From NCBI GenBank assembly GCA_016179685.1, contig JACPCR010000051.1, positions 137,965 to 201,964 of the forward strand: DNA of 64,000 nucleotides. Reading direction: 5' to 3'. Of this stretch, positions 16,605 to 23,357 are shown in pieces. The first letter of the stretch is position 1. Every line of letters begins with the position of its first letter. This DNA comes from Planctomycetota bacterium. Its GTDB lineage: Bacteria > Planctomycetota > PUPC01 > JACPCR01. The notes below the pieces were generated by a model that was given only the letters and a program-made list of their open reading frames with translations, was not told where the DNA came from and did no database searches. Position numbers and translations under genes: made by a program.

Positions 16605-17897
16605 TTATCCCCGGCCGGAGCAGTTCCTTTTCCTCGCTTCCCACCAGCGTTCGGCCCAGGGACGCCGGGGTTCTTCGGGCCGGCCCCCGAGCGACACGCT
16701 TTGGGCCAGCTCTTCAGGCGACATACCGGCGTCCGGGGACCGCGTTTCAGGAAAAAGCTGCGTCAGGCGCTCCGTGAGCGGCCCCGCGCCCCGGAGGAAC
16801 TCGATGCCGATGCGCAGGCAGAGGAGCGGCATCTCCAGCTCGAGGAGCGGCTGGAATTTGACCGCGTCCTTTTGAGTGGTCAGGAGGGCATCGGCCCCCA
16901 GGCGGCGGGCCTCGGAAACCAGGGCCAGCAGGTCATCACCCGTATACCAGTGATGGTCCGGATACTCGCAGAAGCCCACGAGAATCACGTTCAAATCCTG
17001 GACGGCACGGCGAAAGCCTTCAGGATTCCCGAGGGCGCAGAAGGCCAGGACGCGCTTTTGTTTCAACCATCCCATGCCGACGGGGGAAAGGTCCGGGCAC
17101 TGCAGGACTTCCTTGACTCGGTGAGCGGAGGTGAGGATGGGAGTCCGGGGCGCGAGGCGGCCGATCCGCTCGTGCAGGGCGTCCAGCGCCGCAGGACCCG
17201 CCTGGTCCGCACGAGTCAGCACGATCAGGTCGGCGCGGCGCATGCCCTGGACGGGCTCTCGCAGCAGGCCGCGGGGGAGGAGATGGCCGTACCCGAAGGG
17301 ATTCAGGGCATCGATGAGAAGGATGTCGAGGTCCCGGTGCAGTCGCCGGTGCTGGAATCCGTCGTCGAGGAGAAAGCATTCAGGCGGCGGCTGCAGGCGC
17401 TCCATGGCCGTCCGCGCTCCGCGAAGTCGGTCGGGGCCCAGGATCAGGTGCACCCCATCGAGGTTGGCCTGGAGCAGGAGTCCCTCGTCATGGATGCCCG
17501 GGGGAAGGCCGGAAAGCTCGCCGGCGGGCGAGGGGCTTGGCCGCTGCCCGTAGCCGCGGCTCAGGACGGCGACGCGGTAGCCTCGCTTGCGAATCCAGCG
17601 GGCGATCCACTCGACCATGGGAGTCTTTCCAGTCCCGCCCGCGGTGAGATTGCCGACGCTGATCACGGCGGCATCGACGAGATGGGTTCGAAACCACTTC
17701 CCATCGTAGAGGGCGTTGCGGATGCCCACTCCGACCCGATAGCACCAGGAGAGGCCGGAGAGCGACAGCCGTTCCGCCGTTGCAGCCGCCCCGACGGTCT
17801 CACCTCGGATGAGCTTCAGGTAGGCGCTTCGCCGCCGAACGGACGCCGCGGCCGGCAACTCCGGACTGTCCATGGGCAAGGTGGCGTTTTCAGGCAT
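16605..17897 (-). CDS. lpxK: Tetraacyldisaccharide 4'-kinase
   Basis: VISVGNLTAGGTGKTP, LSRGYG, DE, LLDDGFQH, LLPRGLLRE, YPDHH, LTTQKDAVK. Start at 17897 or 17873. Confidence 0.95.
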   Translation of the reverse strand: MPENATLPMDSPELPAAASVRRRSAYLKLIRGETVGAAATAERLSLSGLSWCYRVGVGIRNALYDGKWFRTHLVDAAVISVGNLTAGGTGKTPMVEWIARWIRKRGYRVAVLSRGYGQRPSPSPAGELSGLPPGIHDEGLLLQANLDGVHLILGPDRLRGARTAMERLQPPPECFLLDDGFQHRRLHRDLDILLIDALNPFGYGHLLPRGLLREPVQGMRRADLIVLTRADQAGPAALDALHERIGRLAPRTPILTSAHRVKEVLQCPDLSPVGMGWLKQKRVLAFCALGNPEGFRRAVQDLNVILVGFCEYPDHHWYTGDDLLALVSEARRLGADALLTTQKDAVKFQPLLELEMPLLCLRIGIEFLRGAGPLTERLTQLFPETRSPDAGMSPEELAQSVSLGGRPEEPRRPWAERWWEARKRNCSGRG

Positions 17898-18052
17898 GGC
17901 CGGTTGAATGGGAAGGGAGTGTGGCGCTCTTTCTCTCGGGGCTTGCGGTCCGGCGAACCCTGGGTCCATGTCGCCGGAAGTCCAGCCGTGCGTACGGGGT
18001 CGTCCACGCTTCCCTGGATCTTATTGGCCTGGAGCGTGCTTTCAACGCTCCG

Positions 18053-20419
18053 TCAATCGAGCCGGGCCATCCGGTGTCGGGAGCGGAATTCGGCCTGCTT
18101 GGAGCGATTCCACTCGCTGGTCCGGCTGAAGTAGTCCGCGATGCGGGTCAGCGCGGTTACGGAGGCGGAGTCGCACTGGGAGCATCGTTCCCGGGGCCCG
18201 CGCACGGTGCTCCGGCAGTCGGGGCAGAAAGTGAACGTGGGCGTGAAAGCGACCTGAGAGACGAGGGATTCCCGGTAAGCCTTCTGGAGGACCTGGAAAA
18301 TCTCGTCGCCGCGCGGAGGCGGGTCCGACACGAACGCCTGAGTCAAGGCGTGGACTGGAATCCAGGGATGGAACTGCCCCTCGATCCTCCACCGTTCGGA
18401 AAAGGGCACAGCGGAGTCCGCGCGGATTTTGACTCCGTTGGTGTAATAGGCCTCGTCGGCGTCGGGATCGCCCCGCACAAACTCGGCAGCGAGGGGGAAC
18501 GACTTGTAATCCACAAAGGCCAGTCTTCGGGCCGCATTCTCGGAAGGCGTTTCCTCGAGACAGAGACGGATACCCCGGTCCTCCTCGTGCTGGCGGGCGC
18601 GCTCCTGAACGCGTTCCAGGATGCGGCTGGCCAGCGTCTGGGCCTCGCGGCCGGCATGCAACTCCTGCCCGGCCGCGCAGGCGAGACACTCGTTCAGTCC
18701 CATGAGCCCCAGCGTGCAGGGCGCGTGCAGAAGGTTCAGATAAACGTTGCCATCGCGGACGGTCCGGCCGAGCTGCCAGAGCGGAAGCCGGGACGAGGCG
18801 GCGAGCCGGCCGAGAAACTTGCGCTTCTGGAGGTGAGCGAGCACGGCCCGGTCTACGGACCGGTCCACCTCGCGAAGGGTCTCCTCGAACCGGCCGCCGC
18901 CGGCCCGGTAAGCGGCCTGCGGCAGGTTGAGGGTGACGCTCTGGAGGGCGGCCTGCCGCAGGCTCTCGAGCCGGCTGATCGGCAAGAAAGGCGTCAGAGG
19001 CAGCCGCAGGGGCGGGCCGAAGCGTGAGGACTCTTCGCGGTCGAAGACGAACACGGGGACGCCGTTGTGAGCGGCCAGCTCGGCCGCGAGATAGAGCAGG
19101 GACCTGGCCGGCGGCTCCCGGAAACATTCGGCCATGACGTGGAAGTCGCACTTGGGGAAGCAGAAGATGCCGCCGTACTGATCACCCTGCGACCAGACCT
19201 GAAGGAGAGCGCGGGCCATCCGCTGCGCCGCCTCGCGGTAGCTTCCGTAAGGCCGGCCCGTGGGCTTGCCGCCCGGCCCGATCGCCTCGAGGGGCCGCAG
19301 GATGCCCGGCACGTCCGGGTAGATGTTGAGGTCAACGAACAGGGTCTGCCCCCCGCGGGAGAAGGCATGCTGGGCGCCGTCGAAGAGGATGCGCTGCGCT
19401 TCCTGGTACAGCTCGCGCTCGGAAAGGTCCTCGATGAACGGGGCGTACAGCACGTTGAGGAACTCGATGCCTTGGGGCCCCGCGGCGTACGACTGCATGG
19501 CCCCCAGAAACGTGTAAAGCTGGGACGTCAAACTCGAGGGATGCCGGGCCGGCGCGGACGAAACGTCGATCGTCTCCAGCACCAGGCCGTATCGCTTCAA
19601 GAACTCCAGGGAATGCGTCGCCATGTAGATGCGCGTCGGATAACCCAGGTCGTGCACGTGGATCATCCCCGACAGGTGCGCCTCCGATACCTCGGCCGAA
19701 AAGACCTCGTCCAGCGCATATTGCTTGAGCGTGTGCTCGGCAATCGCCAGGTTGATCGCTTCCGGGTTGTTCGTGACGACCTTGTGGTTCGTCTTGCCGC
19801 GGGCAAAAAGGATTTGATCCAGGTCAAACTTCGGTATCCCGATCACCGCCTGCTTCTCCAGCGTGGCCGAGAGACCCCGGCTGAACAGCTCGTTGTCCAC
19901 CAGCTCGCGGATCAGCGAGGTGGAAACCTGCGTCAGGCCCGACGAGAAAATCTTCTGCTCCACGGCTGCCGCAATCTCGCGGGCCACCGTGGGATCGAGC
20001 TGCGCCTCCACCTCCAGCGCCAACACGATCTTCTCGCGGTCCCACGCGGCCATCTCCTCGCGCGTGCCGGGCGATACCTTCACGGCCGCGCCCTCGACAC
20101 CCGCCGGCTTGCGCACCCGCAGACTGTTCCGAATCTGCGTGCGCCGCTCCCGGTACAGAATGTAGGCCTTGGCCGTCTGAACGTGCCCGGTCTCCATGAG
20201 CACCTTCTCGACGAGGTCCTGAATCTGCTCGATGTGCGGCGGCGTGCCGTCGCTGCCCTTCTCAAGAAACAACGTCACCGCTTCCGCCAGCTCCTCCGCC
20301 ACGAACCGGCTCTCCCCGCCCGCCGCCTGAGCCGCCCTGTAGACCGCGTCGGCGATCTTGGTCTGATCAAAGGGGACAGCCCTCCCGTCCCGCTTGAGAA
20401 CCGTCTGGAACTTCGCCAA
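18053..20419 (-). CDS. nrdD: Class III anaerobic ribonucleotide reductase homolog with two ATP cones, catalytic residues apparently lost
   Basis: ATP cone VLKRDGRAVPFDQTKI, second cone WDREKIVLAL..TSLIRELV, IHVHDL, SRGGQTLF, VTLNLP, YYTN, CxxC-x10-CxxC, WNRSKQAEFRSR. Glycyl motif reads RIADYF. Confidence 0.9.
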   Translation of the reverse strand: MAKFQTVLKRDGRAVPFDQTKIADAVYRAAQAAGGESRFVAEELAEAVTLFLEKGSDGTPPHIEQIQDLVEKVLMETGHVQTAKAYILYRERRTQIRNSLRVRKPAGVEGAAVKVSPGTREEMAAWDREKIVLALEVEAQLDPTVAREIAAAVEQKIFSSGLTQVSTSLIRELVDNELFSRGLSATLEKQAVIGIPKFDLDQILFARGKTNHKVVTNNPEAINLAIAEHTLKQYALDEVFSAEVSEAHLSGMIHVHDLGYPTRIYMATHSLEFLKRYGLVLETIDVSSAPARHPSSLTSQLYTFLGAMQSYAAGPQGIEFLNVLYAPFIEDLSERELYQEAQRILFDGAQHAFSRGGQTLFVDLNIYPDVPGILRPLEAIGPGGKPTGRPYGSYREAAQRMARALLQVWSQGDQYGGIFCFPKCDFHVMAECFREPPARSLLYLAAELAAHNGVPVFVFDREESSRFGPPLRLPLTPFLPISRLESLRQAALQSVTLNLPQAAYRAGGGRFEETLREVDRSVDRAVLAHLQKRKFLGRLAASSRLPLWQLGRTVRDGNVYLNLLHAPCTLGLMGLNECLACAAGQELHAGREAQTLASRILERVQERARQHEEDRGIRLCLEETPSENAARRLAFVDYKSFPLAAEFVRGDPDADEAYYTNGVKIRADSAVPFSERWRIEGQFHPWIPVHALTQAFVSDPPPRGDEIFQVLQKAYRESLVSQVAFTPTFTFCPDCRSTVRGPRERCSQCDSASVTALTRIADYFSRTSEWNRSKQAEFRSRHRMARLD

Positions 20420-20424
20420 CCTCT

Positions 20425-20883
20425 CTATCCCTTCTGTGCCAGAAGCCTGCGCAGCTCATCTGCGAAATCGCTGACGTCCTTGAACTCCCGGTAAACCGAT
20501 GCAAAGCGAACGTAAGCCACCGGGTCGGTCTGCTGGAGGTGTTTCATGACCTCCTCGCCAATGAACTTGGTGGGCACTTCCTTCTCGAACCGCTCGCTGC
20601 ATTCCTTTTCGATCTCGCCGACGATGCGTTCGAGGGCTTCCACGGAGACCGGGCGCTTCTCGCACGCCTTCAGAAGCCCATCGAGGACCTTCTGCCTGCT
20701 GAACGGCGCCCTTCGGCCGTCCTTCTTGATGACCCGGAGAGTGGACTGCGCGGCCCGCTCATACGTGGTATAACGTCGGCCGCAGGCGAGACACTCGCGG
20801 CGCCTCCGAATCTCGTTCTCGCCCGCGGATTCACGAGAATCGACGACCTTGTCGGCGTTGGCCTTGCAGAAAGGACATTTCAT
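20425..20883 (-). CDS. nrdR: Transcriptional repressor NrdR
   Basis: MKCPFC..VVDSR..IRRRRECLAC..RYTTYE Zn ribbon, ATP cone VIKKDGRR, DPVAYVRFASVYREFKD. Confidence 0.98.
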   Translation of the reverse strand: MKCPFCKANADKVVDSRESAGENEIRRRRECLACGRRYTTYERAAQSTLRVIKKDGRRAPFSRQKVLDGLLKACEKRPVSVEALERIVGEIEKECSERFEKEVPTKFIGEEVMKHLQQTDPVAYVRFASVYREFKDVSDFADELRRLLAQKG

Positions 20884-20927: not shown

Positions 20928-20955
20928 ATTATAGGAAGCACCGACGCCCTTGCAA
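20928..20955 (-). promoter_or_regulatory. Putative sigma70 promoter of the nrdR operon
   Basis: On the minus strand TTGCAA (20955-20950), 16-bp spacer, perfect TATAAT (20933-20928), about 45 bp upstream of the nrdR ATG. Confidence 0.6.
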
Positions 20956-21059: not shown

Positions 21060-23357
21060 ATGAATTTTCTCAAACGGCATCCGACGATTCCCCTTTCCGT
21101 CCTGATCCTCATCGGGGGCACTCTCATGATCCGGGTCGCTTTCCACAGCAGCGGAACGTTCGGAGGCACGGCCAATGGCGACGAGATTCCTCACGCACGC
21201 AAGCCCATCCCGCCGCCGGAAGAGCTGGCAAAGCTCCCGAAGGACGGCGGCCCGGAATATAACCGGCTCGTGTTCGAAAAAAGCCCTTACCTCCTCCAGC
21301 ACGCGGGCAATCCCGTCGATTGGTATCCGTGGGGCGATGAGGCGTTCGAGAAGGCCCGGCAGGAGAACAAGCCCATTTTCCTTTCCATCGGCTATACCAC
21401 ATGCCACTGGTGTCACGTCATGGAGCATGAGTCCTTCGAGGATGAAGAGGTAGCCCGCCTCATGAACCAGCATTTCGTCTGCATCAAGGTGGACCGGGAG
21501 GAGCGGCCCGACATCGATCAGGTCTACATGACCGTGACGCAGGCCATGACCGGTTCCGGGGGCTGGCCGATGACCGTCGTGATGACGCCCGACAGGAAGC
21601 CTTTCTTCACCGGCACCTATTTTCCCAAGGAAGGACGCATGGGCATGCGGGGTATGCTCCAGCTTCTTCCCGCCCTGGCCCGGGCATGGAGCGGGGAACG
21701 GGAGAAGGTCCTCCAGGCCGCAGACCACGTGGCTTCCGCTCTTTCCCAGTGGACCCGCGGCGCCCCCGGTGGGGGCCTCCATCCGGCCACGCTCGATACG
21801 GCCTTCCGGCAACTCGAGGCCCGCTACGATCCCGAGCGCGGCGGCTTCAGCCGAGCCCCGAAATTTCCGGTGCCCCACAACCTCTCCTTCCTCCTGCGCT
21901 ACGGGAAGCGCACCGGGAATCCGAAAGCGCTCGAGATGGTAGAAAAAACCCTCGCCGCCTTGCGCCTCGGCGGCGTCTACGATCAGATCGGCTTCGGCAC
22001 GCACCGGTACTCGACCGACCCCGTCTGGCTCGTCCCGCACTTCGAGAAAATGCTTTACGATCAGGCTCTGCTGGCCATCGCCAACCTCGAGGCCTGGCAG
22101 GCCACGGGGAAGAAATTCTATGCCCGGACCGCCCGCGAAATCTTCGACTACGTGCTGCGCGAGATGACCTCGCCCGAGGGAGGCTTCTACAGCGCCGAGG
22201 ACGCCGACAGCGAAGGTGAAGAGGGCAAATACTATCTCTGGACTCCCCAGGAAGTTGTCCAGGTCCTCGGTGAGGAGAACGGCAAGCTGTTCAACCGCGT
22301 CTTCCATATCGTCGAGGGGGGCAATTTCAAGGAGGAAGCGAGCGGCCGGAAGGGGGCCCGCAGCATCCCTCACCTCGTGAAACCCATCCCCGATATCGCA
22401 CGAGACCTCCAATGGGCCGAGGACGAGTTGCAGAAACGGCTCGAAGAAAGTCGCCAAAAGCTTCTCGCAGCCAGGGAAAAACGGGTCCACCCGCAGAAGG
22501 ATGACAAGGTTCTCACGGACTGGAATGGCCTGATGATCGCCGCGCTGGCGCTGGGGGGGCGCACCTTGGAGGATGCCCCGTACACCGCGGCCGCGGAGAA
22601 GGCGGCGAACTTCGTGCTCTCGAAGCTCCGTCGGAATGATGGCCGGCTGCTCAAGCGTTATCGTCAGAACGAGGCCGCCCTGCCCGCCCACCTCGAGGAC
22701 TACGCCTTCATGGTCTGGGGCCTCTTCGAGCTTTATCAAAGCACCTTTGACGTGCGTTACCTCCGGGAAGCCATCTCACTGAACAACCTCATGCTCAAAC
22801 ATTTCTGGGACCCGCAGGACGGCGGTCTGTTCCAGACTGCCGACGACGGGGAAAAGCTTCTGGTGCGCAGCAAGGACATCTACGATGGGGCCATCCCTTC
22901 AGGCAACTCCGTCGCCGCCTTGAACCTGGTGCGGTTGGGCCGCCTGACGGCGAATCCGGACTACGAGAAGAACGCCGAAGGCATCATGAAAGCCTTCTCC
23001 GATGGCGTGGACCGGCAGGCCTCCGGCCATACGCAACTCCTGATAGCCCTTGAATTCATCGAAGGCAGGTCTTACGAGATCGTCATCGCCGGCGACCCCG
23101 AAAGGGAGGACACCCGGGCGGCGCTCCGTGCCCTCTGGAGACCCTTTCTACCCGGCAAGGTCGTCCTCCTCCGGCCGGACGGTGACGCTTCCGCCATCAC
23201 GGACATCGCTCCGTACGCCAAATCGCAGCAAAGCATACAAGGCGCGGCAACGGCGTACGTCTGCCAAAACTTCGCGTGTAAACTCCCTACGACGGATATC
23301 CAGGAGATGCTGAGGTTTCTTGGAGTTGGCAGTGAAGTCTCACCCCAAGAGAAGTAG
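21060..23357 (+). CDS. YyaL/SSP411-family protein (DUF255 thioredoxin + (alpha/alpha)6 barrel) with N-terminal signal/anchor
   Basis: [80 protein letters not shown]. Confidence 0.95.

Follow-up and report, generated by a model that had tools for sequence, protein, structure and literature searches.

An NrdD homolog without the residues of class III ribonucleotide reductase chemistry, encoded directly behind nrdR in a Planctomycetota bacterium

The nrdR-nrdD* locus and the loss of catalytic residues

In the present study, we analyzed an NrdD-type gene that lies directly behind nrdR in a stretch of 64,000 nucleotides (hereafter, the window) of the Planctomycetota bacterium assembly GCA_016179685.1 (contig JACPCR010000051.1). 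This gene, which we designate nrdD*, is an open frame at 18053-20419 that runs from a TTG start to a TGA stop and encodes a catalytically dead 788-aa homolog of NrdD, the oxygen-sensitive class III ribonucleotide reductase (RNR); unless stated otherwise, the features described here are on the minus strand of the window. The gene row on this strand is nrdR (20425-20883), nrdD*, and lpxK (16605-17969, identified with Pfam and NCBIfam), the last of which stands where canonical loci have nrdH-like and nrdG genes. The nrdR stop codon (TAG, 20425-20427) and the nrdD* start at 20419 are separated by the gap of 5 bp that an earlier note on this DNA had given. The NrdR protein (152 aa, start codon ATG at 20883) contains both of its Pfam domains, the Zn ribbon and the ATP-cone, and scored 187.6 bits against the TIGR00244 equivalog model (cut-off 124.65). 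A sigma-70-like promoter was read from the sequence upstream of nrdR (TTGCAA, a 16-nt spacer, and TATAAT; 20928-20955), and the -10 block of this predicted promoter, CTTCCTATAATG, is conserved in an alignment of three loci of the dead clade described below. A divergent open reading frame of 765 aa (21060-23357, plus strand) starts beyond the promoter region.

Regarding its domains, nrdD* matched the Pfam family NRDD (PF13597) with 313 bits over residues 214-782 (cut-off 26.2) and the ATP-cone (PF03477) with 108.9 bits in two stretches, whereas its score against the NrdD equivalog model TIGR02487, 269.4 bits, was under the cut-off of 326.35. ATP-cone 1 spans residues 6-94 (20138-20404), as delimited with Pfam, and the more divergent ATP-cone 2, together with a linker, covers approximately residues 113-205 (19805-20083), with boundaries approximated from Pfam and the helices and strands of an AlphaFold2 (AF2) model. 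The CxxC..CxxC Zn ribbon is kept (C732, C735, C746, and C749; 18173-18226), as are Tyr763, Glu627, and Arg766. The AF2 model, which was built from an alignment of 49 sequences, has a mean pLDDT of 79.7, and all of its top Foldseek matches were solved NrdDs, with E values down to 1e-25 and a TM score reaching 0.77 against T4 NrdD. By profile matches and predicted structure, nrdD* belongs to the NRDD homology family, with the ten-stranded barrel of RNRs and glycyl-radical enzymes and a C-terminal Zn ribbon; the earlier description, an intact frame keeping both ATP-cones, the barrel motifs, and the Zn site, was borne out. Scans with Pfam and NCBIfam returned only NRDD, ATP-cone, and RNR models for this protein, and no catalytic motif of another family was recognized. 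In Prevotella copri NrdD, Lys, Arg, and Tyr residues of the cone contact the nucleotide (PMC11226230). ATP-cone 1 residues K9, R10, Y86, Y89, and R97, which are invariant across the aligned dead and canonical proteins, map by alignment onto these contacts.

The residues that carry the chemistry are replaced. The glycyl-radical Gly is Asp762 (GAC, 18134-18136), its loop reading RIADYF against R(I/V)VGY(F/Y) in canonical proteins, and the first-strand catalytic Cys after HDLGYPTRIY is Met266 (ATG, 19622-19624). In a HMMER alignment to solved NrdDs, Asp762 aligns with the Gly of RITGY (8p23) and RIVGY (4coi) and Met266 with the first-strand Cys; the finger-loop Cys is matched by a gap or Pro. The remnant of the finger loop (residues 461-488, 18956-19039) is free of Cys, reads RFGPPLRL for the canonical SACCRLRT, and has low pLDDT in the AF2 model; no Cys occurs anywhere in residues 433-567. 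Both codons and alignment thus agree with the earlier note on Asp762, Met266, and the Cys-free finger loop. The sixth-strand Cys of redoxin-dependent NrdDs is replaced by Ala490 (18950-18952). When nrdD* was aligned with 114 close canonical homologs, their invariant Cys columns 266, 468, 469, and 490 were M, G, P, and A in nrdD*. The former NxN substrate flap is now N211-x-K213 (19781-19789). PMC11226230 describes the third Cys on the sixth strand of redoxin-dependent NrdDs, the roles of the reducing Cys residues, and the contact of the NxN flap with the substrate, this flap being among the most conserved motifs of NrdD. Cysteines specific to the clade are found at other positions, namely, C420 and C432, which flank the conserved C424 (C-x3-C-x7-C, 19124-19162), and C568 (18716-18718). 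The features of a catalytically competent class III RNR that are missing comprise the Gly, the finger-loop Cys, the strand Cys, the NxN flap, an NrdG activase, and a TIGR02487 score over the cut-off. As judged from its sequence, nrdD* cannot perform class III radical chemistry.

Shared losses under purifying selection

A protein search with nrdD* yielded 2084 homologs, and residue columns were read from the 120 listed (6 dead and 114 canonical). The six closest clusters among these 120 (P0001-P0006, 61-100% identical) all carry losses of the chemistry residues, and the other 114 are canonical, approximately 50% identical, and from Planctomycetota or Brocadiia where named. Position 762 is Asp in all six dead-clade proteins and Gly in the 114 listed canonical homologs; flap position 213 is Lys in 6/6 and Asn in 114/114. 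Within the six, the CC of the finger loop became G-P or G-V, Cys266 became Met or Leu, and Cys490 became Ala or Gly. C420 and C432 are present in all six and C568 in five, the canonical residues being Ala, Thr/Ser, and Tyr, respectively. The six dead clusters are united in a single clade (SH-aLRT 100), the stem of which is long (0.46+0.48 substitutions per site); in a repeat tree, 30 rows were used and those of G007 and G015 were excluded due to wrong reading frames (branch length 4.6).

A sequencing error was ruled out as the origin of the GAC codon because the same Asp is present in five further protein clusters from other assemblies and the contigs of the runs are identical. The stretch was matched letter for letter in the per-run contigs of four out of four metagenome runs, which belong to one study, are possibly the source of this DNA, and are not independent. 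The runs that contained the stretch were these four DNA runs, with no RNA run among them.

The order nrdR-nrdD*-lpxK is kept in all three members for which DNA was available, namely, the window, the sister genome (G001, locus L014), and metagenome locus L049, which, together with the six clusters, answers the earlier call for orthologs with the same losses and nrdR synteny. Between the nrdD* genes of the sister genome and L049, dN/dS was 0.063 (NG86) and 0.080 (YN00) at a dS of 0.9-1.1, and these values are approximate since dS is near 1 and this is the only pair close enough. The neighbouring genes of the same pair gave similar values (NG86/YN00), 0.058/0.078 for nrdR and 0.079/0.084 for lpxK. 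A recent pseudogene, for which the earlier note had expected dN/dS near 1, was ruled out by these values. Every region of nrdD* is constrained, with omega between 0.017 and 0.123; the values are 0.041 in the Zn/C-terminal domain and 0.096 in what was the finger loop.

The dead proteins nevertheless evolve faster than their canonical relatives. At 75-80% NrdR identity, the dead proteins are 62% identical, whereas canonical NrdDs have a mean identity of 80.7% (range 76-85%, n=20), an approximately twofold divergence at matched NrdR divergence. Constraint on the dead proteins is therefore relaxed, yet by no means absent. All six dead proteins keep 194 of the 346 columns that are near-invariant in canonical NrdDs; the other 152 are changed, many of them being fixed to one new residue in all six. 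Purifying selection on a protein that has lost its chemistry residues argues that a non-catalytic role is required, and nrdD* is very probably a selected protein that is not a reductase. The earlier suggestion of a non-catalytic role under selection was upheld in this respect by losses shared among six clusters of one clade.

The host genome (G000; 7.23 Mb, 137 contigs, 90% complete) contains no NRDD match other than nrdD* itself. The earlier note had also considered that nrdD* might inhibit an active NrdD encoded elsewhere; this idea is not supported, nrdD* being the sole NRDD match in the 90%-complete genome. No NrdG was detected in the host by TIGR02491 or TIGR02495 matches over the cut-off (best TIGR02495 score 42.8 bits against 131), or in the sister genome (94% complete) by TIGR02495 matches over the cut-off. 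The absence of an adjacent nrdG was thus confirmed and extends to the genome as searched. By comparison, NrdG scored over the cut-off in 19 of 20 relatives with a canonical nrdR-adjacent NrdD, the exception being 61% complete, and nrdD in canonical loci is often followed by a small redoxin gene and nrdG, where the window has lpxK. A single class II NrdJ is present in the host (1452 bits, cut-off 859); NrdB was not found there. This NrdJ starts without an ATP-cone motif, and its first 24 residues have no NCBIfam match. The sister genome carries a class I NrdA with its own N-terminal ATP-cone. Both nrdJ and nrdA are on contigs other than that of nrdD*, which is linked to nrdR instead.

Two observations were made upstream of these reductase genes, by eye against a consensus of the NrdR box. 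Two imperfect palindromes, CCCAGTATATTGTGCC and CCACATAAAAACGGTG, approximately 31 bp apart, precede nrdA of the sister genome (L110) and resemble tandem NrdR boxes. A markedly AT-rich stretch with a weaker candidate, CTACCATATTTGGTGC, lies upstream of nrdJ of the host (L002, 3800-3990).

NrdD-type genes behind nrdR across Planctomycetota

nrdR was present in 56 of the 61 genomes searched, and an NrdD-type gene was directly downstream of it in 46 of these 56, as established by comparing the match coordinates of nrdR and NrdD, with one further case added. In eight genomes, no NrdD-type gene follows nrdR (smc follows in four), and in two, the locus is cut by contig ends. The gap between the two genes is approximately -55 to +95 bp, with many between -3 and +5 bp. 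The key columns of the 46 genes, read with a profile of canonical proteins, divide them into 20 canonical (17 complete and 3 cut by contig ends), 4 that have lost only the Gly, 2 dead and full-length (those of the host and the sister genome), and 20 eroded. The radical Gly is therefore absent in 26 of 46, and 20 of these 26 are eroded proteins that mainly keep the ATP-cones.

The eroded proteins have lengths of approximately 380-790 aa; their first ~265 residues are 30-53% identical to NrdD and the barrel is barely recognizable. Neither the Zn ribbon nor the C-terminal domain could be aligned in 18 of these proteins; the exceptions, from G052 and G037, keep the Zn cysteines. The ATP-cone scored over the Pfam cut-off in 20 of 21 eroded proteins and NRDD in 10 of 21, the 21st being that of G032, a genome in which no nrdR was found. 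The landmarks V(T/S)LNLPRAA and GLxGLxE survive in some of the eroded loci (L082-L093, L096, and L102-L109). In G043 (L041/L104), a whole-genome search flagged three stops (one TGA and two TAA) within the NrdD-like match behind nrdR, yet at this place a 714-aa frame is open with an NRDD match of 138 bits and an ATP-cone. G054 has an eroded copy behind nrdR (L106) and a canonical NrdD with NrdG elsewhere (L042, contig C32), and G031 may resemble it, with pieces on C144 and C302 and NrdG on C302.

Four NrdDs behind nrdR in other families lack the Gly and evolve at canonical rates; their catalytic Cys, NxN flap, Glu, and Zn ribbon are all retained. The Gly is replaced by Asp in G002 (L034, loop RRIDY) and G008 (L028, RGIDY), by Pro in G005 (L032, RRGVPE), and by Ala in G059 (L035, SRIDAS). 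A redoxin gene lies downstream in G002, G005, and G059, and nrdG is still present in G002 and G059. The proteins of G002, G008, and G005 constitute a single clade that branches at the base of the canonical proteins, beside the branch of the window clade. These Gly-less NrdDs could stand at the start of this decay, or else be enzymes that obtain the radical from another source.

Among the best 150 representatives of clusters at 50% identity from an exhaustive search, canonical proteins account for 62. A further 45, which count as eroded, show a replaced first-strand Cys and lack an alignable Zn/C-terminal domain, 10 show replacement of the Gly along with one or more Cys, and 2 that of the Gly alone; in 7, the Gly is present but a Cys is missing, and 24 are partial or other. 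Many representatives in P0121-P0270 have 1000-1700 aa and match nrdD* in two to four stretches, a pattern expected of intein-bearing NrdDs. When 53 eroded or Gly-less cluster representatives were scored against both canonical NrdD and the window clade, 50 had the higher score with canonical NrdD; catalytic decay with retention of the gene therefore arose more than once.

Gene order indicates that the adjacency of nrdR and nrdD is ancestral, being shared by intact NrdDs of the same class, and, by their profile matches, the genes persisting behind nrdR after the loss of catalysis encode NrdD-descended ATP-cone proteins.

A putative role of nrdD* and comparison with known systems

NrdR is an ATP-cone transcriptional repressor of RNR genes. 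We consider nrdD* to be a non-catalytic, nucleotide-binding derivative of NrdD that functions as a nucleotide sensor in the NrdR circuit, a tentative reading to which we assign a probability of approximately 0.45. From the invariant contact positions of the cone, we infer that nrdD* binds adenine nucleotides, and from the shared predicted promoter, the gene spacing, and the persistence of the pair throughout the phylum, that it acts with NrdR. In the mechanism envisaged, nrdD* encodes a pseudoenzyme that descends from a redoxin-dependent class III RNR and retains the whole fold, from the two ATP-cones through the ten-stranded barrel to the Zn ribbon and C-terminal loop. The protein can neither make nor use a glycyl or thiyl radical, the activase presumably having disappeared from the cell, and dNTPs would be supplied by another reductase, class II NrdJ in the host and class I NrdA in its sister. 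nrdD* and nrdR would be expressed from one promoter, with translational coupling probable, and the ATP-cones of NrdD* would read ATP/dATP, with the protein modulating NrdR or relaying the nucleotide state. A complex prediction for NrdD* with NrdR gave a score of 0.00 and a mark of 0.32; it was run with no controls and counts neither for nor against binding.

Several points weigh against a role of nrdD* as a sensor for NrdR. Since the order nrdR-nrdD is ancestral and also occurs with intact enzymes, adjacency alone does not require a link between the two proteins. The 5-bp linkage, which the earlier note had taken as a clue, loses force to this extent; what stands of the clue is that ATP-cone derivatives of NrdD persist behind nrdR phylum-wide. 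No NrdR boxes were found upstream of nrdR in three dead-clade loci, with 0 in the window at up to 4 mismatches, and canonical loci gave scattered weak matches only; the scan relied on a 16-bp consensus, from which the box of this phylum may differ. Both genomes of the dead clade are incomplete, such that nrdG could sit on the missing DNA, and omega values from a single pair are approximate, as noted above. In addition, the whole barrel and C-terminal domain are constrained in the window clade, not the cones alone, which a pure ATP-cone sensor leaves unexplained. As indicated by these rates, the barrel and the Asp-bearing loop matter beyond the cones, and the constraint on the barrel possibly originates from dimerization, binding at the effector site, or a new ligand or metal site.

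The last of these possibilities leads to the rival with the largest share of the remaining probability, in which nrdD* acquired a new ligand, a metal site, or a non-radical catalytic function in the old active site and has no tie to NrdR. New residues invariant in all six dead proteins are consistent with such neofunctionalization (N213K, G299S, H300Q, Y312A, A315P, L316Q, H343R, H367Y, N494S, S662G, Q680E, G690H, H694Q, V761A, and G762D), as are the clade-specific cysteines, C420 and C432 in 6/6 and C568 in 5/6, which join C424 in the C-x3-C-x7-C arrangement, and the omega of 0.04-0.08 in the core and C-terminal domain. We regard it as unlikely, however, because the catalytic motif of no other family was recognized with Pfam or NCBIfam and because 20 other lineages lost the core and kept the cones, pointing to the latter as the lasting functional part. 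The cones could instead be lent in trans, with NrdD* being an allosteric or scaffold subunit that confers ATP-cone control on NrdJ, which in the host begins without this motif; a dead subunit that aids an active partner has a eukaryotic precedent in yeast Rnr4. The same dead NrdD occurs in the sister genome beside an NrdA with its own N-terminal ATP-cone, and, thus, the partner would differ within the dead clade, while nrdD* is linked to nrdR and nrdJ and nrdA are on other contigs. This role is accordingly improbable.

We find it very hard to maintain that nrdD* is still an RNR that takes its radical from another source. The retained fold, Zn ribbon, Tyr763, Glu627, and Arg766 would fit such an enzyme, as would the Gly-less NrdDs of sister families, which retain all Cys, the redoxin gene, and nrdG; however, the dead proteins (6/6) have lost all three catalytic Cys along with the neighbouring Cys and an Asn of the flap, no activase was found, the TIGR02487 score is under the cut-off (269 against 326), and a complete NrdJ or NrdA is present in the genome. 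The least credible alternative is a decaying pseudogene or an artefact of assembly or sequencing. While the doubled divergence relative to canonical NrdD may be taken as a sign of decay, six lineages with identities as low as 61% retain an open frame, omega is 0.06-0.08, the same as for the adjacent essential genes, and the contigs of four runs are identical.

The observations across the phylum may be joined with those in the window clade into a broader and distinctly less certain reading. Planctomycetota NrdR would have a dedicated class III-derived partner, the cones of which, accompanied in the window clade by the dead barrel, the Asp loop, and the new cysteines, respond to the nucleotide or redox state and determine how active NrdR is. 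Such a partner would have been recruited several times independently, with the window clade as the youngest and still complete stage and the Gly-less, Cys-keeping NrdDs as the first step.

The interpretation of nrdD* as a pseudoenzyme under selection is well supported by the alignments and substitution rates, and the proposed partnership of nrdD* with NrdR is plausible and has gained in motivation. Glycyl-radical enzymes and RNRs are commonly viewed purely as catalysts. If the link to NrdR is true, a second ATP-cone protein joins a regulator that is present in most bacteria, and intact, Gly-less, dead full-length, and eroded proteins form a natural series for the evolution of an enzyme into a regulator. 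One member of the dead clade is labelled 'anaerobic ribonucleoside-triphosphate reductase' by NCBI, a name that may mislead genome-based metabolic reconstructions on anaerobic dNTP synthesis. Besides one table entry in PMC12816986, we found no published description, in the literature searched, of an NrdD without the Gly or Cys or of a bacterial NrdD-derived pseudoenzyme. A Gly-less NrdD is not mentioned in the available excerpts of a 2026 review of glycyl-radical enzymes (PMC13450708), an RNR phylogeny (PMC9531940), or the study on P. copri NrdD (PMC11226230). The entry in PMC12816986 (Table 1) is an NrdD-like gene without an activase from another phylum, in a host with other RNR classes; the excerpt offers a table row without residue analysis or function, and the likeness to nrdD* rests on its description.

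Regarding known systems, the redoxin-dependent class III NrdD with three Cys, as in Thermotoga maritima (4COI/4U3E), has the same fold and domain order as nrdD*. The canonical Planctomycetota NrdDs, at approximately 50% identity, are its closest other relatives in sequence among the homologs listed, and the flap, the ten-stranded barrel, the C-terminal loop and tail, and the place behind nrdR are common to both. In contrast to canonical NrdD, nrdD* has no radical Gly and no Cys on the first strand, in the finger loop, or on the sixth strand, its flap is NxK, it evolves at approximately twice the rate, its score is under the equivalog cut-off, and no nrdH-like redoxin gene or nrdG lies behind it.

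Dead derivatives of RNRs that were kept for other roles include yeast Rnr4 and the betaherpesvirus R1 homologs M45 and UL45. These are class I subunits from other organisms with different roles, and no ATP-cone or link to NrdR is known for them. NrdR itself shares with nrdD* an ATP-cone in which these nucleotide-contact positions are conserved, and it is encoded in the same predicted operon; unlike NrdR, nrdD* has no N-terminal DNA-binding Zn ribbon and adds a dead reductase body of 580 residues. The eroded Planctomycetota proteins share with nrdD* the descent from NrdD, the loss of chemistry, the ATP-cones, and the place after nrdR, and differ from it in that the Zn ribbon and C-terminal domain are mostly lost and in their separate origin, 50 of the 53 representatives being nearer to canonical NrdD.

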